Source: an uncultured archaeon (GTDB lineage: Archaea; Asgardarchaeota; Thorarchaeia; Thorarchaeales; Thorarchaeaceae). Taken from it: a stretch of DNA of 16,923 bases. Position 1 is the stretch's first letter. The number at the start of each line of letters is the position of its first letter. The notes beneath the pieces are model-generated. The model saw only the letters and a list, made by a program, of their open reading frames with translations, was not told where the DNA came from and searched no databases. Both the position numbers and the translations under genes were made by a program. The stretch lies in NCBI GenBank assembly GCA_964590575.1, contig CAZPWM010000069.1, positions 1 to 16,923 on the forward strand. The letters are read 5' to 3'. This document shows, piece after piece, positions 1,557 through 16,923 of the stretch.

Positions 1557-1626
1557 GTTGATTAACCAGATGGTCTACATTGTTGTGATATAATAGACAA
1601 TAGGATTGAAGCAAGCTTTAGTAAGA

Positions 1627-1655
1627 TGGTGGGCCAGGGGGACTTGAACCCTCGA
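1627..1655 (-). repeat. tRNA 3'-end fragment, copy 3 (keeps T-stem 5' strand)
   Basis: Minus strand reads TC-GAGGG-TTCAAGT-CCCC-CTGGCCC-A-CCA, then TCTT. One base short in the T-stem 3' strand; discriminator is A. Confidence 0.85.
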
Positions 1656-1706
1656 ATATTTATTTCCAAGAGTATCTTCAAGTCAACAGGTAAGGAATTG
1701 ATGTGA

Positions 1707-2453
1707 ATGGACAAATGGAAGTACTATGACATTACACACAAGCATCATGTACTCTGTAATCCAATGCGTGAAGAGAAATTCGAACGATTTTGTCAACTTC
1801 TCAACCTACCAAAAGATGCTCGAATTCTTGATATCGCATGTGGAAAGGGAGAAGTCTTAGTCAGACTAGCAGAGAATTATGAAATTTCAGGGGTGGGAGT
1901 TGATCTATCTCCATTTTGTATCAATGATTGTAAGAAAAAACATCTCGAGAGAGTTCCTGAATCCGATTTAACCTTCATTGATTTGGATGGTGCAAAGTAT
2001 CGACCTGAATCTGGAGAACTATTTGATGTTGCAATGTGTTTGGGAGCAAGCTGGGTCTTTGAAGATCATGCTGGAACATTGAAAGCACTCAAGCAGATGA
2101 CAAAATCTGGAGGTCTTGTGATTGTTGGTGAACCTTTTTGGTTGAAGGAGCCTGATACTGAATATCTTGAGGTGACCAAAATGACTCGTAATTCTTTTCG
2201 ACCGCATGAAGATAATGTGTATCAAGGTGAAGAAATGGGACTCACATGCCTCTATACACTTGTGTCTAACAAAGATGATTGGGATCACTATGAAACTCTT
2301 CAGTGGTGGGCTGTTGACAATTATATTCAGTCGCATACGGATGATCTCGATAATCAGGAGCTTCTCGAGAAAACAAAGACTGCAAAAGATATCTACCTAA
2401 AATGGGGTAGAGATACTATCAGCTGGGGAGTATACATCTTCAGAAATCCGTAA
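1707..2453 (+). CDS. class I SAM-dependent methyltransferase, YjhP-like
   Basis: Motif I ILDIACGKG, motif II GVGVDLS, then FDVAMCLGASW and KSGGLVIVGEPFW. The N-terminal HH-VLCNP segment and 248-aa length resemble the E. coli YjhP family (from memory). Confidence 0.9.
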   Translation: MDKWKYYDITHKHHVLCNPMREEKFERFCQLLNLPKDARILDIACGKGEVLVRLAENYEISGVGVDLSPFCINDCKKKHLERVPESDLTFIDLDGAKYRPESGELFDVAMCLGASWVFEDHAGTLKALKQMTKSGGLVIVGEPFWLKEPDTEYLEVTKMTRNSFRPHEDNVYQGEEMGLTCLYTLVSNKDDWDHYETLQWWAVDNYIQSHTDDLDNQELLEKTKTAKDIYLKWGRDTISWGVYIFRNP

Positions 2454-2461
2454 AATCAAGA

Positions 2462-2484
2462 TGGCGGGCCAGGGGGGATTTGAA
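2462..2484 (-). repeat. tRNA 3'-end fragment, copy 4
   Basis: Minus strand reads TTCAAAT-CCCCC-CTGGCCC-G-CCA, then TCTT. 20/23 identical to the tRNA-Lys 3' end. Starts 8 nt after the methyltransferase stop. Confidence 0.9.
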
Positions 2485-2542
2485 ATCTTTGTTCCCTAAT
2501 AGAAATACAAGATGTCCTGCGTGATCTACTTCTAGAAGATTG

Positions 2543-2980
2543 TCAGATTTCATCTGCTATTTTGAGATGTTCCTTAGCTTCATCCATATCAGATTGATAC
2601 TGATTTGCTAAATCTATTTTTCCTTCCGACAGAGCAAGTCTCTTTCGTTTCCGGAGTGATTCAATGCGCATTCTATAGAGTACATCAGGAGTGTACTGAG
2701 GATTTGTGCCAGAAGTGGCAAAGTCTACTTGCATATACCTATCCTCGATTCCATACCATTTGTTCCTTCTCAAATCCCACTCCAATCCAATGAATATAAC
2801 CGCCAGAAAAAGAGTGAGTGCAGCAAATCCTTGAAACCAGAGAAAAGTAGTTTCACTGATACCTGAAATTCCAGACCAATTAAGTAGTAGAGAACCGAAT
2901 GATCCAATGCCAGAAAGAATTGCCATGATTAATGTAATATTACTCTTAATACTCGATTCTTCTCGAACTTCCTTGGTCAT
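2543..2980 (-). CDS. hypothetical membrane protein (2 predicted TM helices plus charged C-terminal helices)
   Basis: Two hydrophobic segments (about residues 15-35 and 47-67), ATG start, TATA-like box about 31 nt upstream. Confidence 0.7.
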   Translation of the reverse strand: MTKEVREESSIKSNITLIMAILSGIGSFGSLLLNWSGISGISETTFLWFQGFAALTLFLAVIFIGLEWDLRRNKWYGIEDRYMQVDFATSGTNPQYTPDVLYRMRIESLRKRKRLALSEGKIDLANQYQSDMDEAKEHLKIADEI

Positions 2981-3010
2981 AGTAACTCGTTTGAGTTATG
3001 TATTGAAACA

Positions 3011-3017
3011 ATATAAA
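3011..3017 (-). promoter_or_regulatory. putative archaeal TATA box (TTTATAT) for the 2543-2980 gene
   Basis: About 31 nt upstream of the ATG at 2980, which fits a leaderless or short-leader archaeal promoter. Confidence 0.45.
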
Positions 3018-3090
3018 TTGCAACCAAAGATTAATGACAATCTAGAGATAATTTGTTGCTAACTATCTGGAGTTAAAATCCACCAATTTT

Positions 3091-4179
3091 TCATTTAAAT
3101 TCGGGCCAAGGATAATCAGCTCTATCAAGTAATCGAATCAAGTCTGCAATAAACAAAATCAGGTATATTACAATCCTATCAACTTCATCCTTGGTAATTA
3201 TACCCATCGGTTTGTGTTTTGTTTTTTCAGTTCTTGCTTTCAGCGATTTGAAATACTCGATTAGATAATCGTGGCCTGCCTTTATTCCATGAATTTCTTC
3301 ATCACCATGACCTATTCCAATTCTTGATTTAATCCATGCTATTACCAGAGCTACTTTTCCAACTGTATCATCCTCCCTAGGTCGCACTTGCTCGTCAGGT
3401 AACATATCTTGTATTAGTAATATCTCGGTAAATCTTTGGAGTGTGTTTCGACAGGCATCTGCAGTAGCACGCCATTCTAGTTCGTTATTTGTTTCTTGCT
3501 GCCTAAGAACCATTTTTGTGATTTCATCAAATAATCTCGGATCAATGCGGGCTAACCTATTTGAAACCAAATCTTTTGTTTCGTCAAAGATATGTTGAAG
3601 AATTGGATGGAATTTAAGGGCAATTTGCTGAGTAATTAGATAATCATTAATCCTAGCACGTACTATGTGCAAGATTGAACGTAACCGATTTCTATCAATA
3701 ACGGAAGTTACTCTAATTTGGTCATCTTGTTGTTCTGGATTCTGTATAATTCGGAAAAGGGAAGGATTTTCTTTCAAATCCTCAATATATCCAATAGGAA
3801 ACGTAACATAGAACGGAACCTCGTATGGTATAAATCTAAATAACGCTCTCCAGAAAATGGAACGTTGTTCGATTGTGTCTAAAGAAGAATGTTTTTCAAT
3901 CATATCAAGAGGACCAAGGCCTATTGGCTTCCAATCATTAAGGTCATAACATCTATATTTGGGGATGAAGTGGTTTGTTGATTTTTGCCCTATAATAGAG
4001 GGATTTGGGTAGCCATTTAATTCAAAATTAATCCATTCTTCTGCATCTTTTGAGCCTATCAATTTTGAAATGTTGGAACATCGTAGAAGGAGTCTTGATA
4101 CTGAAGCCCCTTCAGTGTAAATTTCCTTTAATGTTTCCTCGATGAGGCTTAGGGCTTCGTCTATTCTATCATCTGGCAT
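3091..4179 (-). CDS. AbiTii-like N-terminal domain protein with a helical HEPN/Abi-like C-terminus (putative anti-viral)
   Basis: N-terminus VSRLLLRC..ISKLIG..DAEEWINFELNGYP...IPKYR matches the AbiTii pattern. C-terminus ADACRNTLQ...RTEKTKH (R-x5-H) is HEPN-like. Confidence 0.7.
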   Translation of the reverse strand: MPDDRIDEALSLIEETLKEIYTEGASVSRLLLRCSNISKLIGSKDAEEWINFELNGYPNPSIIGQKSTNHFIPKYRCYDLNDWKPIGLGPLDMIEKHSSLDTIEQRSIFWRALFRFIPYEVPFYVTFPIGYIEDLKENPSLFRIIQNPEQQDDQIRVTSVIDRNRLRSILHIVRARINDYLITQQIALKFHPILQHIFDETKDLVSNRLARIDPRLFDEITKMVLRQQETNNELEWRATADACRNTLQRFTEILLIQDMLPDEQVRPREDDTVGKVALVIAWIKSRIGIGHGDEEIHGIKAGHDYLIEYFKSLKARTEKTKHKPMGIITKDEVDRIVIYLILFIADLIRLLDRADYPWPEFK

Positions 4180-4295
4180 GGTTATATCGATTGAAACTGG
4201 ATGTCGTAATCAAACTTCCGATGTTTCACTTAAAAGATATTTTAGGCACTCTTCAATTCTATCACAAAAGGAATTCTTTTCAAGATTTCGAGCTA

Positions 4296-5246
4296 TTAAA
4301 AATAATCAACTAAATACAATTCAGATACTGCATCGAGTATACTTATTGGTAGAACAATGAGAAGCGGTATTGAAAAAATCACTGCCATTGTTGACAGGTG
4401 CTTCTTGAACCAGTTGCGAATAATTCCAATCATATTCACTAGTTCTGGAGGAATATTCTCCTCTTGCCATAGCATACTGATTGATTTCTCTAACAAATCC
4501 TTAATCTCTGAAAATAACTCATGATCGAATTTTCTAAGTGAAGGTTCAGGATTACCATGGGCAATCTTTCCTCTTAGTCGAACTAAGTAGGTAAGGAATT
4601 TTCTGTATCTCTGAATTTCAGATTTCATAAATTGATTTTGACAAATTTCTTCTATATTCAATGCATCATACAATGTTTGAATAAGTTGATTTGAGCCCAA
4701 ACGCCAAACATGACTGATTTCTGTAACCTTTGTTCTATCTCTTCCGTTCACTATTTCGTTATCAGTGATGTATTTCCCTATTAATCGTAAAATAGTTTCA
4801 GATTCTTTCAAACTAGATATTCGAGAATCTAGATAAGCATCAAGATATGCAGAGCTAGAAAGTGTTAGTAATGCTAGCAGTCTACGTATTTCTCTTCTCC
4901 CAAAAACTTTGGAAAGGTCTACTTCTTGATTTTGATCTGAAATAGAACTCATCAGTTTCAGAAACAATTCTAGTTCTTCGAATCCCTCGGTGGATTCGGA
5001 TTGTTTTTTCAGCTTTGGAATCTCACCTTTCTTCCATATACTAATCCATTCGTTTTGTACGAGGTTGATAGGCCAGGTCATGAAGCTCATTGCATTTACA
5101 AAATTCATTACATCTCCTATTTGTCTACCAAGTTTCTTCCCATTCTCGCTTGAAAAGAGAGCAGTATATTGGATTTCTTCCTTTGAACTATCGATAAATC
5201 TACGTATTTTACCTAATTTTTTCTCAAGAGCATTCGTCACTATCAT
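4296..5246 (-). CDS. HEPN-domain protein (putative RNase effector)
   Basis: R-x4-H motif in LVRLRGKIAHG (RGKIAH at 4557-4574), preceded by an acidic amphipathic helix (SAYLDAYLD). All-helical character. Confidence 0.65.
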   Translation of the reverse strand: MIVTNALEKKLGKIRRFIDSSKEEIQYTALFSSENGKKLGRQIGDVMNFVNAMSFMTWPINLVQNEWISIWKKGEIPKLKKQSESTEGFEELELFLKLMSSISDQNQEVDLSKVFGRREIRRLLALLTLSSSAYLDAYLDSRISSLKESETILRLIGKYITDNEIVNGRDRTKVTEISHVWRLGSNQLIQTLYDALNIEEICQNQFMKSEIQRYRKFLTYLVRLRGKIAHGNPEPSLRKFDHELFSEIKDLLEKSISMLWQEENIPPELVNMIGIIRNWFKKHLSTMAVIFSIPLLIVLPISILDAVSELYLVDYF

Positions 5247-5350
5247 CGCTCCTACAGTTTCCCAATGTAAGCAACGTATTTCATAATTACGAAATTTAGT
5301 GATTCTGTATCTCTGAAATCTTCAATTCTGTATGTGATAGAACCATCAAG

Positions 5351-6577
5351 TTAGTTTGATCCAATTTTATCTTGACTTTTCTTAGATACATAGACGGTTT
5401 TGTAATGATCCTTTTCGCGACGCCATTCCATTTGTATTGGAACCTGATCTTGAATTGGAGTAGATACAGCTGTTCCTAGTTGAATCGGTATAAGAAAATC
5501 TGAGAATCTTCTCTCATTTTCCAGTAATTTCGGAGCTGCTTTTTCAAGAAAGAACTCTCTAAGTTTGGTAAGAGCCTTAATACCATTTTTAATGATTTCA
5601 ACTTCGTTTTCTGTAATTTTCTTCTGCTTATGTACAATATCATTTCTAAGTAGCCATAGACAGGCAACTTCTTCACATTCCTCAGCCAAATTGGGAAGTT
5701 TAAGAGACCTTAACCATGGAGCAAACCCACTCTTCCTTTTTTGTCCCACATACTCTAGATAGATGTGAGATATTGCTTCAAGGGTTATTGCTGCGTTTAC
5801 AAGAGCTTCTTGATATCGTTTCTCTCTATTCTGATTTAATGCCCTTGCCCATTGAAGTTGGTGAAAATCGGGTTCTCCACTAGTTTGAAGTAAATCATTG
5901 AAAACTTGTGACTCGCCAATTTTCTTGACTCTTAAACGAGGATATGGAAAATCAGCCATCCTCTCGTCAGGTGTTATCTGAGTGGGATATAGATAATGTA
6001 TCCCGCCTGAAACCAAAGCAACAAGCAATCTTAACTTTGTTTCATAGAAGCTTACACTGCGTACTTCTCTGGTTGGATTGGATGGACTGATGAGAGTACA
6101 ATATTGGTCAAGAAATGAATTGATATCATTGAGAAGCTGATTGCATCTATCCTTGGAAACATGATGGAACACAATTTTATCCAGTTGTCTTTGCCATTCT
6201 TCTGTACCTGCCTTTGCAGATATCTTAGCTTGACTGATTGTTATTCCTCGTGTAATTGTTGTTTTCATCTTCCTCTTATGATGATAGATTTTTGATTTTC
6301 CAGTAATTCTATTTAGGAACTTGTGGTAGTATTTTCTAGAATTTCCTGTTATGCGATCTAAATATTCCTGATCATCTACCTGTGTTTCATTGACAATAAA
6401 TTCAAACGGTCTATCAATTGGTCCGTCAATTAAGTTACCTGTTATGACTAACCAGAAATCATTTCTAAACGAGAATTCCCGATTAGAGTCTAGGGAGTAT
6501 GTTCCTGATTCAATTGAAATCCAGAAAGGTAGTTCAATGGTTAGGTATACCGTTATGTCGGGTGAGTCGCTTGACAT
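5351..6577 (-). CDS. C-terminal HEPN-domain protein (ApeA-like architecture, putative RNase effector)
   Basis: HEPN helix YQEALVNAAITLE and R-x4-H motif RNDIVH (5630-5647) after a beta-rich N-terminal region. ATG 6577 preferred over TTG 6601. Confidence 0.7.
   Translation of the reverse strand: MSSDSPDITVYLTIELPFWISIESGTYSLDSNREFSFRNDFWLVITGNLIDGPIDRPFEFIVNETQVDDQEYLDRITGNSRKYYHKFLNRITGKSKIYHHKRKMKTTITRGITISQAKISAKAGTEEWQRQLDKIVFHHVSKDRCNQLLNDINSFLDQYCTLISPSNPTREVRSVSFYETKLRLLVALVSGGIHYLYPTQITPDERMADFPYPRLRVKKIGESQVFNDLLQTSGEPDFHQLQWARALNQNREKRYQEALVNAAITLEAISHIYLEYVGQKRKSGFAPWLRSLKLPNLAEECEEVACLWLLRNDIVHKQKKITENEVEIIKNGIKALTKLREFFLEKAAPKLLENERRFSDFLIPIQLGTAVSTPIQDQVPIQMEWRREKDHYKTVYVSKKSQDKIGSN
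6275..6364 (-). repeat. intragenic 45-bp (15-aa) tandem duplication
   Basis: YLDRITGNSRKYYHK / FLNRITGKSKIYHHK, 9/15 residues identical. Confidence 0.8.
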
Positions 6578-6672
6578 TTTAATCACTATACTAATGTTCA
6601 ATTGACATCATAAGCTCGAAATCCTATATACACTCTGCTCGGATTGTAATCTAAAAATTAATGAAAATTAAA

Positions 6673-6691
6673 TGGCGGGCCAGGGCGGATT
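6673..6691 (-). repeat. tRNA 3'-end fragment, copy 5 (T-loop truncated)
   Basis: Minus strand reads AAT-CCGCC-CTGGCCC-G-CCA. 16/19 identical to the tRNA-Lys 3' end. Intergenic. Confidence 0.8.
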
Positions 6692-6742
6692 TTTGGGCGA
6701 CTAATTGAGAAGCCATATATGATTTGATTATTCACTGCTGTT

Positions 6743-7025
6743 ATGGTTGAATTTGATGCTAAACTGTTTTCAGTACTCACAGAGAAGGTAGTTCACGATG
6801 CTTTGCAGGGGAGACCAGTACAAGACCACGAAACAGTATTCCTCGATTCTGCTTTTTTTGGTTAGTTTCTTTGATATTGGTAATGAATCGATGAAAAAAG
6901 CAGAATTTAAAGAAGTACTAGTTGCAATGAAGGATTATGGACTTACCGGATGTCAAGTTATACAACTGACTTCATTCGGTCTTGATGAAAGTGATTTGAC
7001 AAGAGAGAAGATAATTGTCATGTAG
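6743..7025 (+). pseudogene. frameshifted small gene, PIN/VapC-like N-terminal motif
   Basis: ATG 6743 frame (MVEFDAK...ETVFLDSAF) stops at 6865. Removing one T from the T7 run (6853-6859) joins it to the 6798-7025 frame, giving TVFLDSAFLVSFFD, similar to the PIN first-strand motif. TATA-like CATATAT about 25 nt upstream. Confidence 0.4.
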
Positions 7026-7110
7026 CTTGTTGATGCTTTTACAGTCCCAAAGAAAGGAGAGAACAAGGTCAATCATTCATCTGTGGTGAAGTGAGGGATT
7101 TGGATTATTC

Positions 7111-8034
7111 TCAGGTCGTGCTGTAAACTAGTTGAAGAAAGATATCCAAAAGGAGGTCCACATTTGCTGCAACAGTTGCAGTAATAGAAATTGGCTGGTT
7201 ATCCTTCAAGTGAGAGGTGTTTTTTCTCACCTTGTTTAGCTCACTAGCTAACCAAGATTCCAATGTTCCCTCTTTCAAAACTCTCAACTGACGTGAGGCA
7301 CCGACCAACTGTCCAAGTGTGAAGTCATCTAGGTTTTTCCCTTGATAATTAGCTTCTCGAATTTCATTCCATTTGGTTTCATCGAGGATTGTTATAGGCC
7401 TAACTTGATCTTTAAGCACTTCTTCAAGCAGCAGGGATGCACATCTTATGGATTCTGACCAGTTACTTTGCCAGAGAGCGATTTTGTAATCTTGAACCTT
7501 ACTCCAAAGGTGTGCGGAAATATTCGATGCAAAGAGAGGCGCGGGTGCGTTTAACGCATCTCTTCCTCTTGAAGTCAAATACATCTCTTTGAACTCATTT
7601 TTCTTGATTAAGCCTAAGACCGTCAATTTCCTTAGTCTATTTCCTAATTCCAAACGTGATGGAAGAATATTTTCTTCTAGAACAATTTCATTAAGTTTGA
7701 CCAAGTTTCCACATACATCATCTAAGCAATCCAGAAGTTCCCTATCTATCGAATCAATTAGAACATAGGTGGGTTTTCGTGAAGATATCATTTCGAGAGT
7801 TTTGTCTTCTGGAGGAGAGAATATCGATTCTAACAGTTTTTTCTGTATGCGCCAATTCATTCCCTCAAATATTATTACAGACAAATCCCACATACCAACA
7901 ATAATGAGGAACAATGGTCTGAAATCAATTTCATAAATTAGCAATGGGTTCGACCCCCATAGGATAATGAATACCATGGTCAAAATGAATGCCCAGACGG
8001 TATAATCTCTACGGACCAATTTCCTATTACTCAT
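7111..8034 (-). CDS. 2xTM + winged-helix + HEPN-like protein
   Basis: Two N-terminal TM helices. wHTH signature LGNRLRKLTVLGLI...MYLTSRG. HEPN-like ESIRCASLLLEEVLK...TLGQLV...RKNTSH (7210-7227). ATG 8034 has a GAGGA RBS and is preferred over TTG 8055. Confidence 0.7.
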   Translation of the reverse strand: MSNRKLVRRDYTVWAFILTMVFIILWGSNPLLIYEIDFRPLFLIIVGMWDLSVIIFEGMNWRIQKKLLESIFSPPEDKTLEMISSRKPTYVLIDSIDRELLDCLDDVCGNLVKLNEIVLEENILPSRLELGNRLRKLTVLGLIKKNEFKEMYLTSRGRDALNAPAPLFASNISAHLWSKVQDYKIALWQSNWSESIRCASLLLEEVLKDQVRPITILDETKWNEIREANYQGKNLDDFTLGQLVGASRQLRVLKEGTLESWLASELNKVRKNTSHLKDNQPISITATVAANVDLLLDIFLQLVYSTT

Positions 8035-8113
8035 TGAAATTCCTCTAACTGCCAAAGACCTAGGCTTTCCTTAAAACTTCCACAGCTCGAATTTTCCGAG
8101 ATAAGTCATTATC

Positions 8114-8650
8114 TCACTCGGGATGATTTTGTTTCAGTCTTTCAATAGTTGCCCATGACTCTCTTGTCGTATGCTCAGAAGCCAGCCAGTCATAAAGAAC
8201 ACTATCCTGTACAAGTCGAAATGTTCTCTGTAGTAAGTTGATTGGAATTGCTATCTGGAATTGATGATCTGAAACAATGTGTTTCAGCATAACTCTCCAT
8301 GATGTCCTGAGGTTGATTCCCTTTTGCCCGGCATGTTTGATTCTATCAATTACACCAAAATCTTCGAGTAGTCTGAGTTGACGTCTTGTGCTCCTCTCAC
8401 CCACGTCTGAGAGTCTATTGATGTGTTGAAGAAGTAGAGGTCGATTATTGGTTAGCAAAGCGGGTAAAATGCCGCTCTCCAGTGTTATCCTTAATATACG
8501 AAAGAGGTCAGTAGTAATTTCTGACTTAGTTGCCGAACTTGTTCTATGATGTTCAATGATGTAGTGAAGGAGATACTCTATTCGAAGTATCTCATCTATG
8601 GATTTCTGCCCACCTTTCCAGCCTGCAATCGATGTGGTTTCCTTTTGCAA
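8114..8650 (-). CDS. winged-helix DNA-binding protein (putative regulator)
   Basis: HTH-wing pattern LSDVGERSTRRQLRLLEDFGVIDR. The TTG start is uncertain. Confidence 0.55.
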   Translation of the reverse strand: MQKETTSIAGWKGGQKSIDEILRIEYLLHYIIEHHRTSSATKSEITTDLFRILRITLESGILPALLTNNRPLLLQHINRLSDVGERSTRRQLRLLEDFGVIDRIKHAGQKGINLRTSWRVMLKHIVSDHQFQIAIPINLLQRTFRLVQDSVLYDWLASEHTTRESWATIERLKQNHPE

Positions 8651-8880
8651 TCAATATTCCTTGATTCTTGACCACAGGTTGCACGAACACTAACAATTGA
8701 TGATACTATTAGGTTAGGTATCTTCGCTCCACCTAACGATTTCAAGAAGAGAGCCGTTCTGAAACGATTGATGGTTAACAGACCATTGCTTGTTGCTAAA
8801 GCTGTAAGAAACCTAACTAAGGATAACGTTGAATTTGATGTGTGGTGGAATTGAGTTCGAATTACATTCTTGGAATATTC

Positions 8881-8894
8881 CGAAACCTCTATAA
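8881..8894 (+). promoter_or_regulatory. putative BRE/TATA promoter of tRNA-Lys
   Basis: CGAAA (BRE-like) followed by CTCTATAA, about 28 nt upstream of the tRNA 5' end. Confidence 0.55.
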
Positions 8895-8921
8895 CATGAA
8901 ATGGAGCAGATGCGAAAACAC

Positions 8922-8998
8922 GGGCCGGTGGCTCAGTCAGGTAGAGCGACAGGCTCTTAACTTGTTGGTCGCGGGTTCGAATCCCGCCCGGCCCGCCA
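8922..8998 (+). tRNA. tRNA-Lys(CTT), intronless, encoded CCA
   Basis: Full cloverleaf: acceptor GGGCCGG/CCGGCCC, D-stem GCTC/GAGC, anticodon stem ACAGG/CTTGT with loop CT-CTT-AA (anticodon 8956-8958), T-arm GCGGG-TTCGAAT-CCCGC, discriminator G, CCA. Confidence 0.97.
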
Positions 8999-9003
8999 TT
9001 GAC

Positions 9004-9010
9004 TCTTTTT
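9004..9010 (+). terminator. possible oligo-T terminator of the tRNA
   Basis: TCTTTTT begins 5 nt after the CCA. Archaeal intrinsic terminators are oligo-T tracts. Confidence 0.4.
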
Positions 9011-9063
9011 GCAGCTCCTCTTCAATCTGGCTAAGCCACTGGTCGTTCATTTTCAGATAGACT

Positions 9064-11214
9064 TCAACTAGTCCGTCCAGGAACGACACTGGATTGTTGA
9101 ACATGAATTATATTACGTGCTGCATTGATGTCAGCGTGGAAATGTTCATCACATTTTGAGCAGTAGAAGAACTCTCCTCCTTTTTTCTCGGATTGAGAGG
9201 CTACATCCACAACTCGAATCCCTCGTTCACCGCACTGATGGCAGGTCTGACTGGTGTATCTTGGGTTCACAGTCCACACACTGTATCTACAGTGGCCAAG
9301 GGACTCTCTCATGTATCTCACTGTTTCGATGATTTTTCCCCAGAGGTTCACTCCTAGAAACCAAGAGAGATTGTCCATACCTCCACGAGCTTGAAAGCTC
9401 CGAAGGTCTTCGAAGAACAACTTCTTTACTCTATGTTCTTCACAAAACCAGACAGTCCTTGAAGCAATCTGTCGGGCAATCTCTCGATCAAGACGACGAA
9501 ACTTACTCCACAGTGCACCAACATGTCTATCTCTCTTGAGAACAGGTGCTGGGTGTGACTGTCCTGACCGTTTCTTGTCCCAGTTATTCTTCTTTCTGTC
9601 CAGTTCAGAGGTTAGTCTTGAAGCATGCTTCCTGATTCGTTCTCTCTTCTCAACCAGATTTCCTACTGTGATGAGCATATCAACAAAGGAAGCATCTTTC
9701 TCAACAGACAGTGCCACAGGAGCTCGTATACCCCTATCAGCTCCAGCATGATTGTCATACTCTCGCTTCCCCATGATTAATGAGCTAACCTCACCATTAG
9801 GAGAGAGAAAAGGAATCTGGAGAGTGACTCTATTACCCCTGAGAAGGAGTCGTGGCGGAGCACTCCTGCGGGCATTCCTCAGTTGACTCACCCTTTGCTG
9901 TAAGAGGGTTATTTCTTCTGTGTCTGATTCGCTTCTTCCCTTCATCTTTGACAACTGATATGCAGAGTGTTGAAACTCAATCGTGTTCATCAGCTGATTA
10001 TACATGTCTTCGAACTTTGCTGCTCTGAATCTTAGTTGTTCTACTCTTTGACTGGCGCTAAAGTTCATTGCATCATCAGCTTTTTTCTTATCTGTAAAAC
10101 TTGCTCTTGGAAGCCAGTTCAAGAACCGAAACGTTAGTGTCCTTGAACCATATGGAGATTGCTCGTTATCCACTCCATCAATTCCAGGTGGGATCTTGAG
10201 ATGGAGGAGAATCTCGTTTTCCTTCTTCTCATCAACAGTGAACCAGTAACCTTGACTCACTGTATTCTCAGTTGATGCAGAGAAGTCCAAGCTGTAGTTC
10301 CTGAGTATTGGTACCGTGGACGGATACCCGTTCTTTTTCCAGCTTTGAACCTGACTCATAACGAGCTTTTCAACACTCTGCATCTCAGAGGAGTTCTCCT
10401 TCAATAGAGAGATTATCTTGGTCCGCTGATGTCTTCGCTGGTGAGTTTTGATGCCATGATGGTCGAGAATGTGACAATCGAGAGCAAATCGAATCTGCCG
10501 AAGAACTCCGAGAGCATAGTGGTATCCCGCACCATTGTTCCTCACAGCTTCGCACCGGTCCCTCACCTTTCTCAGTAGGAAGTTCGGGATTCTCTTCTTA
10601 TCTAGAAGAGATAGCACATTGTTGGTTGATTCACTCAGATAGGCGATTGCAGCCTTGACAAGTTGTCTTCTAGTCCAGTCTGTGAGGATGATCCTCCCAG
10701 CTTGTTCCAGGGCGTTTCTGTGGAGTCGACCATAGGTCAACTCCTTGAAGTCTTGGTTGTTCTGATAACAGATGTCTGGCTCACTCCTCAGAAGGTTGTA
10801 TGCACGACCTCGATATTCCGAGAGCTTCTTCCCAAGTTGTTCTGCATACTCTGTATTCTTGTAGACCTTCTCAAGAACAAGGTTGACAGTAGAAACATAC
10901 TGTTTGAAGGTTGACTCAAGGATACTAAGGTCGGTTTCCCGTACCTTCCTTCCTGTACTTCCAGCGATTGAGAGAATCTGTTGGGCACTACTTTTGCTCT
11001 TCTTTGAGAAGGAGGGGTCTGGTCGTCGGTTCTTTCCTTTTCGAGAGATGACTCTGTCAGAAGAATTGAGAGAGAATGACTCGACGAGGTACTTCAGACC
11101 AGTCTTCGGTGTTCCTGATGATGAGTATATAAATTTGTCATCAATTGTCTGTTGCTCTTCAGCCATAGACTGAGTCTGCTTCCGGTGATGACGCCGGATT
11201 GTTTCTTTTGTCAT
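9064..11214 (-). CDS. tnpB: large TnpB/Cas12-like RuvC nuclease (716 aa)
   Basis: RuvC-I AGADRG (D493), bridge-helix-like basic coiled segment, RuvC-II LFFEDL (E602), zinc ribbon VNPRYTSQTCHQC...CSKC, RuvC-III HADINAARNI (D695). GGTGA RBS at 11218-11222. Confidence 0.9.
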   Translation of the reverse strand: MTKETIRRHHRKQTQSMAEEQQTIDDKFIYSSSGTPKTGLKYLVESFSLNSSDRVISRKGKNRRPDPSFSKKSKSSAQQILSIAGSTGRKVRETDLSILESTFKQYVSTVNLVLEKVYKNTEYAEQLGKKLSEYRGRAYNLLRSEPDICYQNNQDFKELTYGRLHRNALEQAGRIILTDWTRRQLVKAAIAYLSESTNNVLSLLDKKRIPNFLLRKVRDRCEAVRNNGAGYHYALGVLRQIRFALDCHILDHHGIKTHQRRHQRTKIISLLKENSSEMQSVEKLVMSQVQSWKKNGYPSTVPILRNYSLDFSASTENTVSQGYWFTVDEKKENEILLHLKIPPGIDGVDNEQSPYGSRTLTFRFLNWLPRASFTDKKKADDAMNFSASQRVEQLRFRAAKFEDMYNQLMNTIEFQHSAYQLSKMKGRSESDTEEITLLQQRVSQLRNARRSAPPRLLLRGNRVTLQIPFLSPNGEVSSLIMGKREYDNHAGADRGIRAPVALSVEKDASFVDMLITVGNLVEKRERIRKHASRLTSELDRKKNNWDKKRSGQSHPAPVLKRDRHVGALWSKFRRLDREIARQIASRTVWFCEEHRVKKLFFEDLRSFQARGGMDNLSWFLGVNLWGKIIETVRYMRESLGHCRYSVWTVNPRYTSQTCHQCGERGIRVVDVASQSEKKGGEFFYCSKCDEHFHADINAARNIIHVQQSSVVPGRTS

Positions 11215-11391
11215 CAGTCACCACTCTCAATTTCTGACAGGATATTATATTCTCATTTAGTATATAAATTTACCAAGATTATGAAAAATAAAAGGTTAAA
11301 AATGGCATATTTCAGCAAATAGATGAGACTCAATAAGATAAACAAAATAGACATTACTCAATAAAATCAATATATATAAGATAATAATTCA
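11215..11391. promoter_or_regulatory. AT-rich divergent promoter region
   Basis: TTTATATA on the - strand (11261-11268) for the RuvC gene. TATATATA on the + strand (11371-11378) about 26 nt before ATG 11404. Direct repeat ACTCAATAA at 11328-11336 and 11356-11364. Confidence 0.65.
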
Positions 11392-14300
11392 ATGTTTGTT
11401 TTAATGAAAAACGCTGAATTCCCAAAAAACCCAGGGAGGGTTCTCACCAAAGCCCTCCAGTTAGGCCTCACAGCAGTGGCATATCTAGCGAGAACAAGAG
11501 TGACAAAGACCACAAGACACCTCTACTGGGGTGGGAAGGGGCGAAAGGGAATCAGACATATCCTGAAGGAAGGTCTCTCAGAGTACCGACAGTCTGTGAG
11601 GGAGAGAAGACCCGATGCAAAATACCTGCAACGAATCGAAAACAACGTCCGACGCAGCCACAACAAGATTGTCCTGAATGCATCGGTCCGTTATGGCAAT
11701 GTGGAAGAGAAGCGGAGGAGAAGGAACGAGGATCGAAAATACATCAATATCCTTGCAGATTACTATGGAGCAAAGATTAGAAACATTGGTGCAGTGGAGT
11801 TCTCCTTTCCAGAACCCATGTTGATGGAAGCCAGCGATGGCAGTAAGAAACGAGTCTACCCAGGAAACACTCGCGTGCCAGAGTATGTGCCGACCCACAC
11901 TGCTCCTGAGCTCGACTTCATGGATATGATCAGGGGCTACGGTATCGAACTCGCAAGACAGTGTATGAGATACTCTGTTCCAATGAGAGAGGCAAAGCGA
12001 TACCTTGACAGACTCATTAATCGCCTCATGCCATACCTCGAGTATGTATACACTGAGGGAAAGAGGGGAAAGAAGGGGTTCATTCATGGAGGTGCACAAG
12101 AGCTCAGGGAGATTGTCAGAGAGATTCAGGCACTCTACGGGGGTATGAATGGTAGACCACCATCAATCACTGGAGAGGTTTCAGGATATAGGCAAGTTGA
12201 AACATCAAAAATGCCTGATGCTTTGGATGTTTCAATTCCTGACGAATTCTTTCAATCATCCTTGGTAGAGGATGATGAGTCAAGGGAGGCGGATGTTTTA
12301 GATCCAAAGGATAAAAGTGAGGATGAGTTAGACACCTTCTTCTCTGATATCATATCCAAGTGTGATGTGAACCTGCATCCAGAGTGGAAACCGCATGTGG
12401 AAAAGATCCAATCACTGATTGATGAGAGGATACTCACTCGGACTGATGCGGAGAATGTGTTACAGAAACTGCTGGAAGACAGTAGGATGATGGGTTCAGC
12501 CTTCCATGACTTCATTGCTAATTCTGAATTCTCAGTCAGACCCTTCTCACTTTTTGCTCCAATCAGGCACGGGGACCAGATGGTCACTGAAGAAACCCCC
12601 TTCCTGTTCACTTGCGAAGTGACTATAGCCAACGGAAGAGGGCGGGTCGACATCCTCGTCTTTCGGAAAAAGAACCTAGAGAAGGCTGATGAGTCGAAAG
12701 AAGACACCATATGGGAACCGTTCATTCTCATCGAAGTCAAGACCAAGTGTTTCTATCAGCTTGATTTGTACGCGACAACGACGAGGTCTAAGGACAAGAG
12801 CTGTCGAGTCATAGAGCCAGTCATAGAGAGAAGAAAATCAGACGATTCTGAGTGGGAGGAGGTTATCAACTCAACACCGGATGACTATGGGAAGGACCAA
12901 CTGAAGGCGTACGAGAAAGAGGTGCTTTCTGCATACAATAGATTCGCACGGAGCGATTCCAACCCTCCTGATAGACTAATGAAAGGAGTGCTCATCGTTG
13001 ACCTGAAAGAGAACTGGGAAACTCTCAGGACGTGCATTAGAGATTTCATTCTTGAGGCTTATCACAAATATCAGAATGATGGTGATTCAGAAAGACAGTT
13101 CTTCTTTCCCATTTTTGAGGGGAGCAGTCCAAGAATGGGGCTTGTATTATACAGCGGCTGCAATACCAGAGATGCCACTCTAGTTGAGAGAGTTCAAGAG
13201 TTCAATCCCGTTCTATATTCAAGACAACGGGATGATGACAGAGAGTTTATTCTGTATCTCACAGTATCAGGGAAAGGGTCTCCCTCCGCATCTGCAGCAG
13301 GGATTGCAGCCAGATGGCATGGACTAAGTTTCATTCATGAACGAGTGAAAGGGAAACATAGAGATGTTGTGTGGTTTGATTTATCTGGCGAATTGAAGAA
13401 TCGGACATTAAGGAAACAAAGTTTTCGCGCTGGGCTTCAGTCAAAGAGTGTCCAGAGATTTCTGAGAGAAAGAATAACCTTTGCTGATGTGTCAGAGTCC
13501 TTCTCATCTTATGCCAATGGGATGCGTGCCCTTAATGCAATGATTGAAGAGATAGATGAAAATCTCAAAAACAAGAGTAAGCCCTTTATCGTTGTTACAG
13601 GTATGGATAGAATTAGAGCGACTATTCAAAGACAGAGGTTGCCTCTGCTTGATGAGTTTTTGTCTTGGATTCTCGAAGGACTGCCTTCTCATTCAACGCT
13701 ATTATGGTTTGACAGTCCTGTACCAGTGAGTAAGACGAGTCAAAAGTATGACACCCGATGCGTGGCACCATTCTATCCAAACAGTCCATGGGTTCGTTTC
13801 GTCGATGAGGTTGTCTACAATCTTCCTATGGCTCCAAGGAGATACGGGTCCTATGTTCCTGTAGAGGATGACATCAGATGGCTAGCGATTGAGAGTATAA
13901 ATAGCATCCAGATTGATTCTGTGTTGATTCCACCTCTATACAAGTGGGGAGAGAGATTCAGACCTGATAGTAATCGTGAAGAAAATATCGACAGTCGACA
14001 GGAGTTCTACTTGAGAGGCAACTATGCTTCCATAAGGCAGGGATATCGAACACACTACAGTGAGTCTGATCAAAACGAGATATTGGAGCTAGTCCCACAT
14101 CTTAGAAGGTTCTATCAGACATATGAACGGGAGGAGAGAAATATCACTATTCAGCAGAGAAAACTCCCGACAACAATCTCTAATGCACCATCCCTTCTTT
14201 CGAGGATCGTCTTCAGACCATATCAGTATTTGACCTCTGTTGATGCTGATGACCGTATCAAGAAACTTGACCCGTTAGCGAAGGTGAATCACGCACGAGA

Positions 14301-16797
14301 ATACAGAACGACTCGCCTATTTGAAAGATCTCCAAAACAGACCACGCGACCGCCGCATATCGGTCTATTACATTTCCAAGGCCTTGATAGGTTAGCCATA
14401 GTGAGAAAGGAACTTAGTGGGATCAGGCGGACATCCAAGATCATCACTAAGCGCTATGGCGAGAACAAAGAGTGGAAAGAGTTTCTCGACTCACTTGCCA
14501 GCCTTACTGAGAGAAAAGTGATTGACGAGTATTCGGAGAACGACACGTTCAATGTTCTGCGTGAGATCCGAGTGTTTCTTGAAACTCACGACTTTAGCAA
14601 TAGATTGTGGGTCGCTTTAAAGAAACAAAGGTCTTGGATTCCAGAGGGTCTATTAGAGGACCAAAAGACAGAACTGAAGAAGCTTCTTGATAAGGACCCA
14701 GACTTGTTGTTGATATTTGGCAATCATCTATTTCTTCTTCTCCTTACATCGCTATATGAGTCCCGAACATTAGATGTGCCAACAAACTCGTTGGAGACCC
14801 TTTGGCATTATCTTCTACCCTTTCAGTTGATGGGGATTGGGTTTGTTGCGAGGTATCACTCATATCATAACACAGGAGTGTCAATTCTTCATAGATCGAA
14901 ACTCATTGATCGCATGAAAACGAGATACGAGAGTTTGAAGCAAGTCTTTGGAGAAGAGCAAGTATCTGAAGTTCTCTTTGGTCGGGTGTGTCTTGTAGAG
15001 GAGCACGATAATGAGAGTCCGCAACACATCCTTCTCGCATTCCAAACAAGACCCAATAGCCTTGAGATGAATGTGATTTATCTCAAACTTCCACACGAGA
15101 TTAGTGGATCAACATATGAAGTTCTGAGGAGTTTCTGCAAGGATAGACCTTTCTGGGGAGCTAGCGACCTAATCCTGCTCAGAGAGTTGTCGGAGAGGGT
15201 TGAACCAGAAAGAGGCATAGATATCATGATTGCAACTCAACGAGGGATTCGAGGTCTTTGGGTCCATGATGATAAGACTCAGACTTGGCAACCAATAGGG
15301 AGAGTTGACTACTACACACGAAAGCATGAAGCAGTCACACTTCTCATGTCGATGATTTTGAGAGAAGACCCAACTCTTATTCAAGTGGCGAGAGCTACTG
15401 TCAGGGAACCACCTGGTAATCTTGAAGATTCGATCAGAGTTGGACTGGGTCTTATTTCAACAGTATATCGTGATGTAGTTCATGTCAAGTGTTGTGTTCA
15501 TCTTGAAAGTGATACCCGAATGTTTAGACTCTCAATAATGGACTTGGACAGTGAAGATGAGATAGCGCATTTGATGATTTCAGACGCTGTGGATGTGCTT
15601 GAACTTCTTCGACGACCCGATTTTTCATGTGAGCCAGTAGTGATTGATGGGAATCACTATGTATGGAACAGGTTTTCTGACATCGAATTCGATGAGGAAA
15701 CAAAAATCCTACGGCCTTTTGTTGTTAGGCAGGACCCTTTTAAAACTAAATCGATACTATTTCCTCCTACAGCTGAATCATTCCATGAGATTGAGAAGAG
15801 CACTTCTCTAAAAGTCAAAATCAGTCATGATTACCATGTTTGCCCACTTAGAAATCGAAATCTTGGAGCAATAACTAAGCAATCCGATGCTACTGAGAAG
15901 ATTGTTGAATATCTAGAAGATACGGATGGTCCCCCGGGACAACCAGAGTCACTATTCAATGAGTCAATATTCAGACATGGCTCCTGTTGGAGCATATCGT
16001 TCCATCCTGATGACCAAGCCCCGAAAGAAATCAAGGAACTAGAAGAAATCAAGTTCACTGGTCCAATACTCGCCACATTTCTTGAAACCGGTGCAATCTC
16101 ATATCGTACTCAGGATGACCAGTGGGTAGTGCATGATATTCTGATTCCAGAGTCTAAAAACTTGCCAAAGGAGTTCAGAGAGTCGATATATCTAATGCGG
16201 TGGAGAAGAGAGAGAGCTGCATATCCCGGTTTATACCTTCTTGAGGGATGGAGTCCTGAAATATCGATTTTCGAGGAAAGAGTTGAGTTCAGACTTGTAT
16301 CCGAGCTCACACCCCAAAAGAAAGTTCACACGGTATTCAGACCGAGAGTTGAGATGATCGAGAGAAACCATCTGTATCAGCTCTTAAAAGAGGGTATGGA
16401 GGTAGTACTTGATCAAGCGGGGTTCTCTGATAACACTCTAATGAAGCAGCTTGTTGAAGAGGAGATTAGAAACCATCTATCACTGATAGAAGAGAGGCCC
16501 ACTACAAAACTTCAGCTGGAATCGGTTGATATCGCAACTGACAATGCTGGAGGGAAAGTAGTAGAGGCAATCTTTGTCACTGACGAGGGAGAGTATGTTT
16601 CAATTCAGGTGACTCAATGGATACATGTCTATCAAAACTGGACAGAGATGGCAGGAGGGATTGGTGCTGATGTGATAGAGGGGGAAGTTGAAAACGCCTT
16701 AGATGGTCGAGGCATTGGGATTGAATTGATTAATCGAATCATAGAAGACGTGAAAGATATACTGATGGAAAAAGGAGTAGTCATCCTCGAATCATAA
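11392..16797 (+). CDS. giant multidomain protein: PD-(D/E)XK (RecB/Cas4-like) nuclease + degenerate RecA/KaiC-like domain + unknown regions
   Basis: Uninterrupted 1801-codon ORF. Nuclease motifs in canonical order: GSAFH (368-372), E409, GRVD420, IE448VK450, Q503LKAY. ATPase-like remnants: LTVSGKGSPS (~627), VVWFDLSGE, FIVVTGMD (~732). The true start may be ATG 11404. Confidence 0.75.
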   Translation: MFVLMKNAEFPKNPGRVLTKALQLGLTAVAYLARTRVTKTTRHLYWGGKGRKGIRHILKEGLSEYRQSVRERRPDAKYLQRIENNVRRSHNKIVLNASVRYGNVEEKRRRRNEDRKYINILADYYGAKIRNIGAVEFSFPEPMLMEASDGSKKRVYPGNTRVPEYVPTHTAPELDFMDMIRGYGIELARQCMRYSVPMREAKRYLDRLINRLMPYLEYVYTEGKRGKKGFIHGGAQELREIVREIQALYGGMNGRPPSITGEVSGYRQVETSKMPDALDVSIPDEFFQSSLVEDDESREADVLDPKDKSEDELDTFFSDIISKCDVNLHPEWKPHVEKIQSLIDERILTRTDAENVLQKLLEDSRMMGSAFHDFIANSEFSVRPFSLFAPIRHGDQMVTEETPFLFTCEVTIANGRGRVDILVFRKKNLEKADESKEDTIWEPFILIEVKTKCFYQLDLYATTTRSKDKSCRVIEPVIERRKSDDSEWEEVINSTPDDYGKDQLKAYEKEVLSAYNRFARSDSNPPDRLMKGVLIVDLKENWETLRTCIRDFILEAYHKYQNDGDSERQFFFPIFEGSSPRMGLVLYSGCNTRDATLVERVQEFNPVLYSRQRDDDREFILYLTVSGKGSPSASAAGIAARWHGLSFIHERVKGKHRDVVWFDLSGELKNRTLRKQSFRAGLQSKSVQRFLRERITFADVSESFSSYANGMRALNAMIEEIDENLKNKSKPFIVVTGMDRIRATIQRQRLPLLDEFLSWILEGLPSHSTLLWFDSPVPVSKTSQKYDTRCVAPFYPNSPWVRFVDEVVYNLPMAPRRYGSYVPVEDDIRWLAIESINSIQIDSVLIPPLYKWGERFRPDSNREENIDSRQEFYLRGNYASIRQGYRTHYSESDQNEILELVPHLRRFYQTYEREERNITIQQRKLPTTISNAPSLLSRIVFRPYQYLTSVDADDRIKKLDPLAKVNHAREYRTTRLFERSPKQTTRPPHIGLLHFQGLDRLAIVRKELSGIRRTSKIITKRYGENKEWKEFLDSLASLTERKVIDEYSENDTFNVLREIRVFLETHDFSNRLWVALKKQRSWIPEGLLEDQKTELKKLLDKDPDLLLIFGNHLFLLLLTSLYESRTLDVPTNSLETLWHYLLPFQLMGIGFVARYHSYHNTGVSILHRSKLIDRMKTRYESLKQVFGEEQVSEVLFGRVCLVEEHDNESPQHILLAFQTRPNSLEMNVIYLKLPHEISGSTYEVLRSFCKDRPFWGASDLILLRELSERVEPERGIDIMIATQRGIRGLWVHDDKTQTWQPIGRVDYYTRKHEAVTLLMSMILREDPTLIQVARATVREPPGNLEDSIRVGLGLISTVYRDVVHVKCCVHLESDTRMFRLSIMDLDSEDEIAHLMISDAVDVLELLRRPDFSCEPVVIDGNHYVWNRFSDIEFDEETKILRPFVVRQDPFKTKSILFPPTAESFHEIEKSTSLKVKISHDYHVCPLRNRNLGAITKQSDATEKIVEYLEDTDGPPGQPESLFNESIFRHGSCWSISFHPDDQAPKEIKELEEIKFTGPILATFLETGAISYRTQDDQWVVHDILIPESKNLPKEFRESIYLMRWRRERAAYPGLYLLEGWSPEISIFEERVEFRLVSELTPQKKVHTVFRPRVEMIERNHLYQLLKEGMEVVLDQAGFSDNTLMKQLVEEEIRNHLSLIEERPTTKLQLESVDIATDNAGGKVVEAIFVTDEGEYVSIQVTQWIHVYQNWTEMAGGIGADVIEGEVENALDGRGIGIELINRIIEDVKDILMEKGVVILES

Positions 16798-16865
16798 TGA
16801 ACCGCATATCCATGATATCGATTATACGTGTCTTCAGTTCATAGGTGATTTTAATGAAGACCCAG

Positions 16866-16922
16866 CTATTGCTTCCTTTTTATGTCGTATTCTTTTAGAA
16901 CAAGCACTCTATACAAGGAGTG
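16866..16922 (-). CDS. possible 3' end of a convergent gene (HSLYRVLVLKEYDIKRKQ*)
   Basis: Minus-strand frame is open from the window edge to TAG at 16866-16868. Too short to assign. Confidence 0.3.
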   Translation of the reverse strand, partial: HSLYRVLVLKEYDIKRKQ

Positions 16923-16923
16923 G

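Follow-up and report, generated by a model that had tools for sequence, protein, structure and literature searches.

The window analysed here is a stretch of 16,923 nucleotides (nt) from an uncultured archaeon of the Thorarchaeaceae (assembly GCA_964590575.1, contig CAZPWM010000069.1, positions 1 to 16,923). It contains a gene for an enlarged TnpB-type nuclease, arranged head-to-head with a giant gene for a putatively Cas1-like protein. Past the TnpB stop codon follow a conserved transposon end and a convergent host gene for tRNA-Lys(CTT). Coordinates of the features are listed in Table 1. The gene pair and its end are interpreted below as a copy of a Thorarchaeota transposon that probably belongs to the Cas1-TnpB elements of Asgard archaea.

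The TnpB gene is read from the minus strand, which an earlier note on this DNA had left unstated. As described there, the open reading frame (ORF) encodes 716 amino acids (aa) with a complete RuvC triad, D493 (HAGADRG), E602 (LFFEDL) and D695 (HADINAA), four zinc-ribbon cysteines (Cys658/661/685/688) and ~490 aa ahead of RuvC-I; triad and cysteines were invariant in an alignment of 30 TnpB family members. Residues 625-702 were assigned by Pfam to the Cas12f1-like TNB family PF07282 (53.7 bits, cut-off 26.3). OrfB_IS605 scored 16.9 bits, below its cut-off of 30.5, and positions 195-387 of the 389-position NCBIfam model guided_TnpB aligned to residues 487-703 with 59.7 bits against a cut-off of 100. 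The PADLOC models Cas12u3 and Cas12f matched the C-terminal part. All Pfam and NCBIfam matches were confined to residues ~485-705, so that the first ~480 residues fall outside every catalogued family. When 1.84 billion 50%-cluster representatives were scanned exhaustively with HMMER, 215 proteins reached E <= 1e-3; residues 1-480 were matched by close relatives alone, and distant ones matched ~485-705 only.

An AlphaFold2 (AF2) model was computed from the 30-member alignment (predicted local distance difference test, pLDDT, 76; predicted template modelling score, pTM, 0.67). Residues 93-295 were entirely helical in the model, and its top Foldseek match was AsCas12f (E 2e-11). With VIA-align, AsCas12f (8dzj_A) was superimposed on model residues 42-708 with 381 of 416 residues (Z 18.4, root-mean-square deviation 3.9); Cas12f structures (Z 15.8-18.4) ranked ahead of Fanzor2 (9b0l_P, Z 14.5) and ISDra2 TnpB (8h1j_A, Z 14.1). 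Because of the model and these matches, the protein is predicted to be a complete TnpB/Cas12f-type nuclease with ~290 extra residues, chiefly a helical expansion of the REC lobe. The expanded N-terminal region of the earlier description is thus mostly this helical lobe (residues 93-295) on a Cas12f/TnpB-like fold. By alignment and model, the ORF appears to encode a real, catalytically competent RNA-guided nuclease of TnpB type that is probably active. The ratio of nonsynonymous to synonymous substitution rates (dN/dS) against the syntenic copy of the closest relative, L008, was 0.140 in the TnpB gene and, over the initial 1,536 codons, 0.144 in its giant partner, and purifying selection on both genes is read from these codon comparisons.

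The giant protein has 23 homologues, of which all named ones are labelled Thorarchaeota, and for several of them the longest contig has the same length as that of a TnpB relative; giant-type proteins across the family measure ~1,650-1,950 aa. For its N-terminal part, 22 segments of 1,000 aa were aligned and residues 1-1000 were modelled with AF2 (pLDDT 79, pTM 0.75). Two groups of residues were invariant in the 22 segments. The first (E83, E105, N119, H169, D175, D178, R181) resembles the Cas1 pattern E...H...D-x-x-D/E-x-x-R, and the second (E409, D420, E448, K450, Q503, Y507) is similar to a RecB/Cas4-type PD-(D/E)xK nuclease with QxxxY motif. Foldseek detected a RecA/KaiC/RAD51-paralogue-like domain in the model (E 5e-5), and in a structure search independent of Foldseek (48,161 chains) residues 612-900 were RecA-like, with KaiC 9ofh_A at Z 12.4. 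In the latter search, residues 3-236 matched the C-terminal catalytic domain of Cas1: among 50 matches listed, seven chains were titled Cas1 or casposase (4n06_B with Z 11.1 over 188 residues, 4w8k_A, 8flj_A, 6qxf_I, 7kft_D, 6opm_A and 8d3p_A; Z 8.7-11.1). An eighth chain over these residues, 2yzs_B, is presumably Cas1 as well, and one unrelated chain was found there among the matches listed. The statement of the earlier note that the window holds no cas gene therefore has to be revised, since the N-terminal ~240 aa of the neighbour are predicted to fold like the Cas1 catalytic domain. Sequence databases were little help: the only Pfam match at E <= 5 was BrxL_N (E 0.086, judged meaningless), no PADLOC family and no usable ESM Atlas match were obtained, a search of Protein Data Bank (PDB) sequences gave nothing meaningful, and a profile of the 22 giants found nothing under E 0.17 among PDB sequences. 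From fold and motifs, we read the N-terminus as the aCas1 of the literature, the Asgard Cas1 that was reportedly called 'extremely diverged' by Makarova et al. 2020.

The intergenic region shared by both genes is 73% identical to its L008 counterpart over ~300 nt. Within it, at window positions 11317-11370, two direct repeats of ~26 nt lie 28 nt apart and are 77% alike; they could be promoter or operator elements. Tandem Repeats Finder, run on the whole window, reported 9 rows, with copy numbers of at most 2.4 and periods no longer than 14, in agreement with the CRISPR array having been noted as absent, and a repeat search of window 8000-12000 found only two-copy direct families.

The end of the element past the TnpB gene was delimited by comparison of copies. 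Where near-identical copies occupy different sites, their homology breaks off 29-57 nt past the last aligned TnpB codon. In nearly all canonical copies among 70 3' ends examined, the stop codon is followed by two ~10-nt repeats (TGTCCAAGTT and TGTCCAACTT), then by ACAATGAACGGT and then by unrelated flanks; in some subfamilies the TnpB ORF reads on into a TGA within the ACAATGAACGGT motif. Among 65 right ends, the last ~25 positions were conserved and the next 25 positions of the flank were random. Because of the target duplications in the copies C25 and C6 of the same genome and in that of genome G001 (see below), the true right terminus is ...ACAATGAAC, and with the following G(G/A)(T/C) the target begins. 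The right end of the window copy comprises the last ~155 nt of the ORF and 19 nt past the stop, with the terminus ...AATGAAC at 9045. It reads ...GAAAATGAAC, followed by GACCAGTGG, with the junction AAC/GAC, a single subterminal repeat and no GG, and therefore resembles the two-gene form of the element described below.

For covariation analysis, 40 right ends were aligned, taken from 50 canonical ones and that of the window. Within the 3'-terminal part of the ORF, a hairpin (in the window TCCAG...CTGGA, 9076-9093) covaries: pair 138-155 is CG in 20 and UA in 19 right ends, and at pair 142-151, 33 right ends have GC and 7 have CG. Covariation is seen also in a second stem (GGAC/GTCC), which spans the stop codon. 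This is the appearance expected of an omega-RNA scaffold overlapping the tnpB 3' end, and the right end is a candidate for one. In the Rfam search, the tRNA gave the only match.

A transposase had been noted as missing. This holds for the window itself, where none of 10 neighbouring ORFs gave a Y1 or serine transposase match in Pfam, but other copies of the element carry a serine transposase gene. Its product scores 174-182 bits with NCBIfam model NF033518 (cut-off 110) and has MerR-type helix-turn-helix (HTH) and Resolvase domains; this tnpA ORF is therefore an IS607-family transposase. By tblastn, tnpA ORFs with at least 194 aa aligned were found in the C123 copy of the same genome and in 8 related loci (two of them with one internal stop), and partial copies or remnants in 9 further loci. 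No tnpA ORF was detected on the window contig, on C6, in L008, in G001 and in many other loci. The C123 element provides the sole serine-recombinase match in the genome of the window (91% complete), between a left-end motif of ~100 nt and the giant stop codon; the Y1 transposase family PF01797 had no match in this genome. The left-end motif starts with (G)GGT and holds an inverted copy of the right-end repeat. Isolated matches to it, away from any TnpB copy, occur on C143, C84, C82, C57, C10 and C45 of the same genome and may be solo ends or miniature derivatives.

According to the available parts of Chen et al. 2018 (PMC6188088), IS607 elements insert at GG, have GG at both termini and short subterminal repeats, and make no duplication. 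The termini of copies with a left-end motif, (G)GGT... and ...AACGGT, are in line with such GG ends. The right junction of the two-gene copies C25 and C6 reads GAT, with no GG. The element thus occurs in two forms. Type 1 comprises three genes, with the IS607-family serine transposase just inside the left-end motif, and has GG termini; type 2 comprises two genes only, is devoid of tnpA and is flanked by 9-bp target duplications.

Insertions were compared with empty sites in related genomes. In the genus, at least 15 of the 27 other genomes have the two C25 flanks directly adjoining, and four junctions were inspected base by base: the empty site has one GATAAATGA, and the occupied site has GATAAATGA on both sides of an insert of 2,246 nt ending ...TTCAATAAAC. 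The full-length C6 copy, whose site is empty in 3 sister genomes, is an insert of 7,364 nt that contains the giant and TnpB genes only, ends ...ACAATGAAC and has GATTATGAA on both sides. In G001, a long contig bears a copy of the tRNA-Lys type of the window, with no tnpA and with identities to the window proteins of 49% (TnpB) and 55% (giant); it has an exact GGCTGGTGG directly past the right terminus and again ~20 nt beyond the giant stop. Copies of this family have inserted into sites that are empty elsewhere, with 9-bp duplications of the target. When the junctions of five sites were compared by eye, their sole common feature was a G immediately preceding the 9-bp duplication on its 5' side.

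Two other candidate signatures were rejected. Terminal inverted repeats around the module amounted to one 36-nt pair in L039, which lies in the tRNA promoter region and is missing in the close relative L033. A general target duplication at the 'GGGT' left-end motif was not found either: of 16 two-ended copies, L062 agreed at 10 of 10 positions, 3 showed partial, shifted matches and 12 none; those copies fit IS607-type GG exchange instead. In L062 (670-685 and 9286-9301), the 11 nt past the right-end ...AACGG equal the first 11 nt after the left-end GG, which may represent a 9-bp duplication at a left end of canonical type or else a circle-junction trace.

Relatives of the TnpB were collected by a word-index search, in which 7,998 candidates were scored and 262 proteins reached E <= 1e-3. 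The 120 listed are mostly ~700 aa long and 50-82% identical, and those with names are labelled Thorarchaeota or Promethearchaeota. Genomic stretches with TnpB relatives were confirmed in 466 cases, of which 80 loci from species-representative genomes were kept; many of these stop at contig ends, and two metagenome-assembled genomes (MAGs) supply 9 loci each. Archaeal titles are borne by 79 of the 80 loci, and together with the named homologues this bears out the Asgard host that had been suggested. The lone exception, L075, is a 3.4-kb contig titled as an Anaerolineae bacterium MAG; its TnpB fragment is 88% identical at the DNA level to L029 over 777 nt, and a binning error is more likely than a bacterial host. 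As far as sampled, the sequences place the transposon family in Thorarchaeota exclusively.

Copy number and locus conservation were examined in the genome of the window (3.4 Mb, 194 contigs) and among the related loci. The genome holds 6 copies of the TnpB family, the other five at 43-70% identity to that of the window, and one distant TnpB besides. In all three full-length copies with upstream sequence (window, C123 and C6), the giant gene lies head-to-head with TnpB; the three giant ORFs (1,801, 1,644 and 1,683 aa) are mutually homologous. Among the 80 loci, 38 were eligible for a pairing test (TnpB with intact N-terminus, >= 3 kb of upstream sequence), and a divergent giant gene was found beside TnpB in 28 of them. 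The copies C25 (435 aa) and C49 (457 aa) encode short TnpBs that lack the N-terminus, and of the giant gene they retain, directly upstream, no more than the last 70-200 codons. They hold the 3' ends of both genes alone and are therefore internal deletions, from which the intergenic region and the 5' parts of both genes are missing. Like derivatives occur in other genomes (L051, L055, L082 and L084).

The window copy lies in tRNA-like sequence beside tRNA-Lys(CTT), a position shared by a few close relatives, and both of its genes are intact. The tRNA gene is convergent with the TnpB gene, its 3' end being 65 nt beyond the TnpB stop, and the same layout is found in L033, L039, L107 (genome G012) and G001. 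The ~20 nt after the right end look like tRNA positions ~2-21 (acceptor stem and D arm); 17 of 20 positions are shared with the 5' part of an intron-containing tRNA-Lys gene of G035. tRNA-like flanks follow the right end also in L008, L009, L033, L039, L054 and G001, and a subfamily with such an acceptor/D-arm flank beside tRNA-Lys may be made up of the window, L008, L009, L033, L039 and G001. Within the genus, TnpB stands beside tRNA-Lys in 3 of 28 genomes, that of the window included, and at least 8 of the 28 have the tRNA-Lys promoter and 5' half without TnpB. Synteny of the window with L008 extends beyond the module. In window 16798-16923, the reverse complement of the expected 9-bp duplication was not found, and the left end of the window copy probably lies beyond the contig.

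Table 1. Features at the TnpB locus of the window.
Feature	Position	Strand	Basis or remarks
Intact, intron-less tRNA-Lys(CTT), host gene beside the insertion	8922..8998	plus	ARAGORN; Rfam tRNA, 71.2 bits
Flank past the right-end terminus: expected 9-bp duplication (GACCAGTGG) and would-be guide	9020..9044	minus	sequence; guide role putative
Right end and candidate omega-RNA scaffold	9045..9221	minus	conservation and covariation
Enlarged gene of a putative TnpB-type RNA-guided nuclease	9064..11214	minus	ATG-started ORF, 716 aa
Layout of the TnpB protein			disordered N-terminus, WED strands, expanded helical REC lobe, RuvC-I/II/III with zinc-ribbon (TNB) insert
Divergent intergenic region between TnpB and giant genes, presumed promoters	11215..11391		177 nt
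Giant partner gene	11392..16797	plus	ORF, 1,801 aa; head-to-head with TnpB gene
Domains of the giant protein			Cas1-like catalytic (~3-236); PD-(D/E)xK-like motif; RecA/KaiC-like (~612-900); ~800-aa C-terminus

On the far side of the tRNA gene, ~6.1 kb (window roughly 2463-8920) between tRNA-Lys and a methyltransferase gene are absent from the syntenic L008. On its minus strand, this stretch contains six ORFs, one of which encodes an AbiTii homologue (3091-4179; Pfam 2.2e-14, PADLOC 5.4e-15); it looks like a variable island at the tRNA gene. A weak RiboL-PSP HEPN match (4296-5246) reached 23.5 bits, under its cut-off of 28.4. The defence-rich island of the earlier note thus survives as an AbiTii gene nearby, and the richness is thin, with that one gene and one HEPN match below the Pfam cut-off. 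tRNA genes were also seen near other copies and in an element-free sister. In L112 (~1553-1740; genome G035), tRNA-Lys(CTT) is apparently interrupted by intron-like inserts and received no ARAGORN call; the tRNA-Lys promoter regions of G035 and the window are 91% identical. Loci L023, L034 and L036 of another subfamily have a convergent tRNA-His(GTG) ~100-200 nt past the TnpB stop; the right-end flanks of L034 and L036 look like a tRNA 3' end in antisense.

In the interpretation that we favour, with a probability of about 0.78, the TnpB of the window is the nuclease half of a multi-copy Thorarchaeota transposon whose other half is the Cas1-like giant, i.e. an 'Asgard Cas1 (aCas1)-TnpB' element related to IS607. 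Elements of this kind are already catalogued in print. In the mechanism proposed, the right-end region from the ORF 3' end to ...ACAATGAAC would be transcribed as omega-RNA scaffold, and the flank past it, starting with the duplicated 9 bp, would act as guide. TnpB would then cut element-free sites, and this might lead to retention or homing of the element, as has been demonstrated for IS605 and IS607 TnpBs. The Cas1-like giant would perform the staggered 9-bp integration of copies without tnpA. That the giant is a working transposase with a 9-bp stagger, that the right end is set where omega-RNA scaffold and guide meet, that each insertion auto-programmes TnpB with a target-derived guide and that one subfamily has settled beside tRNA-Lys is put forward as a tentative proposal, which may well prove wrong.

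Several observations weigh against the transposon interpretation or parts of it. The window contig ends 126 nt past the giant stop, and the type and the duplication of the window copy are taken from its relatives. Every NCBIfam TnpB model scores the protein below its own cut-off, the IS607_TnpB model with 17 bits against 350. Pfam Cas1 gave no match to the giant at E <= 5, nor to any protein of its genome. The Z of ~11 for its largely helical N-terminal domain is below the caution line of the tool (~13) and may reflect merely a common arrangement. When the first 270 residues were compared by hhalign with nine Cas1 from relatives, a probability of 15% and an E of 0.0018 were obtained over 56 columns, in which E83 and N119 were paired with conserved Cas1 positions; Cas1 homology, suggested by fold and motifs, is weak by sequence. 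A full divergent giant is missing in 10 of the 38 eligible loci (2 with small remnants, 3 with same-strand homologues, 5 with none). An exact upstream copy of the 9-mer past the terminus was found for 5 of 58 right ends, against ~2 expected by chance (10 matches for ~290 control 9-mers). Of the five, two (C6 and C25) have been confirmed through their empty sites, L058 (7,194 nt) and L062 (8,609 nt) are plausible, and the L031 match falls inside the giant gene and is probably due to chance. The left termini of four copies flanked by target duplications have no common sequence, which would be unusual for an end-recognising transposase. GTTCACTCA, reported downstream of aCas1-linked tnpB genes (PMC10691335), was found downstream of tnpB in 4 of 65 copies only, at scattered positions. 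Finally, the sole RNA library among 24 runs listed gave two 151-nt contigs on window 8600-11500 and none over the right end; both lie in the 5' part of the ORF (10715-10865 and 10974-11124) and have no bearing either way on the omega-RNA.

In the main alternative, the giant would be cargo or an accessory, for example in repair or defence, and movement of canonical type would be purely IS607-like with TnpA acting in trans on copies that lack it, the 9-bp duplications resulting from capture of a linear copy at staggered breaks, e.g. TnpB-made ones, and fill-in of the overhangs. Cas12-type nucleases leave staggered ends. In 9 copies, an IS607-family tnpA is found immediately within the left-end motif, with partial copies or remnants in 9 more loci, canonical copies agree with IS607 in having GG at either terminus, the lack of a common left-terminal sequence in duplication-flanked copies is expected of capture and not of end recognition, and the Cas1 homology of the giant is weak by sequence. 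However, the giant is intact in the tnpA-less copies C6 and G001 and under purifying selection in copies without tnpA (dN/dS 0.14), and the only serine-recombinase match in the genome sits in one element, C123. C25, C6 and G001 are unrelated insertions, each with exactly 9 bp and the identical right terminus, which looks enzymatic, and duplication-flanked copies have no GG at the right junction (GAT in C25 and C6). A cargo role is a possible but doubtful explanation on this evidence.

Domestication, as proposed in the earlier note, fails together with its reading of the missing transposase because the TnpB belongs to a multi-copy element with empty sites and with IS607-bearing copies. Six copies in one genome, 9 loci in each of two MAGs, conserved ends, deletion derivatives, empty sites and an IS607 transposase speak against it, and what that note had itself named as contradicting its reading (multi-copy insertions, ordinary ends and a link to IS605/IS607) was in substance found. 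A narrower version, in which only the window copy is now a host gene, i.e. a fixed nuclease at tRNA-Lys with a tRNA-like guide for defence or tRNA-gene surveillance, is unlikely as well. It could draw on the synteny with L008 beyond the module and the same tRNA-Lys layout in G012 and G001, on the intactness of both genes with a dN/dS of 0.14, on the loss of one of the two subterminal repeats from the window right end, and on the ~20-nt tRNA-like flank being kept in lineages whose TnpBs are only 47-49% identical. Yet TnpB stands beside tRNA-Lys in only 3 of 28 genomes of the genus and at least 8 have the tRNA-Lys promoter and 5' half without it, the G001 copy of the same type has a perfect 9-bp duplication and hence is an insertion, the window TnpB is still linked to the giant transposon gene, and a selfish element that is active would be under purifying selection just as well. 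At <= 3 mismatches, no second target of the would-be guide exists in the genome. That the protein is a Cas12f-like type V CRISPR effector, with an array that has been lost or is situated outside the contig, is very improbable. The top structural matches are Cas12f and the PADLOC Cas12u3 and Cas12f models match the C-terminal part, but all sequence matches are confined to the shared RuvC/TNB core, no array was found in the window or around the gene, the TnpB stop is followed by a conserved transposon end and then random flank in 65 copies, and the Pfam Cas1 model has no match in the genome.

A literature search on TnpB in Asgard archaea or Thorarchaeota and on aCas1 found only one paper that bears on the element, Altae-Tran et al. 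2023 PNAS (PMC10691335). In the accessible text of that paper, TnpBs beside aCas1 are described for two Asgard groups, 'Cas1H-Asgard-1/-2', aCas1 is proposed as transposase, and a conserved T, a hypervariable stretch and then GTTCACTCA are reported downstream of the aCas1-linked tnpB. As far as that text goes, the family studied here shares the Asgard host, an intact-site TnpB next to an extremely divergent Cas1 homologue, the absence of a CRISPR array and a multi-copy, transposon-like locus flanked by repeats. The conserved T followed by hypervariable sequence may also have its counterpart, in the ...AACGGT end followed by random flank, whereas GTTCACTCA after the hypervariable stretch is not conserved here. 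The accessible text of PMC10691335, whose supplements may hold such details, contains no mention that we found of a ~1,800-aa Cas1-like/PD-(D/E)xK-like/RecA-like partner, of a three-gene IS607-type form, of the exact right terminus, of 9-bp duplications and empty sites of tnpA-less two-gene copies, or of a subfamily, including the window copy, in tRNA-like sequence beside tRNA-Lys.

Compared with IS607 as described in the available parts of Chen et al. 2018 eLife (PMC6188088), type 1 copies agree in their IS607-family TnpA, in tnpA and tnpB lying on the same strand, in GG termini and a G-rich left junction, in short subterminal repeats and, mostly, in making no target duplication. They differ in the ~5-kb giant gene placed in opposite orientation between tnpA and tnpB, and the TnpBs of the family have ~700 aa, not ~400. 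Many copies, probably including that of the window, have no tnpA and are associated with 9-bp duplications, which IS607 does not make. IS200/IS605 elements, which insert 3' of a fixed short motif and do not duplicate the target, are set apart by their Y1 TnpA, for which no match was obtained in the genome of the window (91% complete), and by the 9-bp duplications of C25, C6 and G001. The predicted TnpB shares the WED-REC-RuvC-TNB fold, the D-E-D triad and the CxxC...CxxC ribbon with Cas12f, ISDra2/ISFba1 TnpB and Fanzor2, and differs by its ~290 extra residues, mostly helical at 93-295, and by sequence similarity in ~485-705 only. Unlike Cas12f it has no CRISPR array, and unlike Fanzor it resides in an archaeal, not a eukaryotic or viral, host.

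Casposons likewise combine a Cas1-family putative integrase with target duplications, and casposase 6opm_A matches the N-terminus of the giant with Z 9.4. Some casposons insert at tRNA genes, and their target duplications measure 14-15 bp, in contrast to the 9 bp of the window family. The present elements also differ by having no family-B DNA polymerase (the C6 insert has two genes only), no long terminal inverted repeats and a TnpB.

Cas1 serves as integrase in CRISPR adaptation and in casposons, and Cas12 descends from TnpB; an Asgard transposon carrying a Cas1-like protein and a TnpB bears on how integrases and RNA-guided nucleases joined. We know of no bench test of Asgard Cas1-TnpB transposons. 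For experiments, the family offers an exact right terminus, 9-bp duplications with empty sites, a candidate scaffold and candidate catalytic residues of the giant, and the IS607 transposase of some copies allows two possible engines to be told apart. The ~700-aa TnpB is in addition a candidate compact genome-editing nuclease from a mesophilic archaeon. If the proposed roles of the giant and of TnpB are true, the element would represent a natural partnership of a Cas1 integrase and an RNA-guided nuclease outside CRISPR, in the archaeal lineage nearest to eukaryotes.

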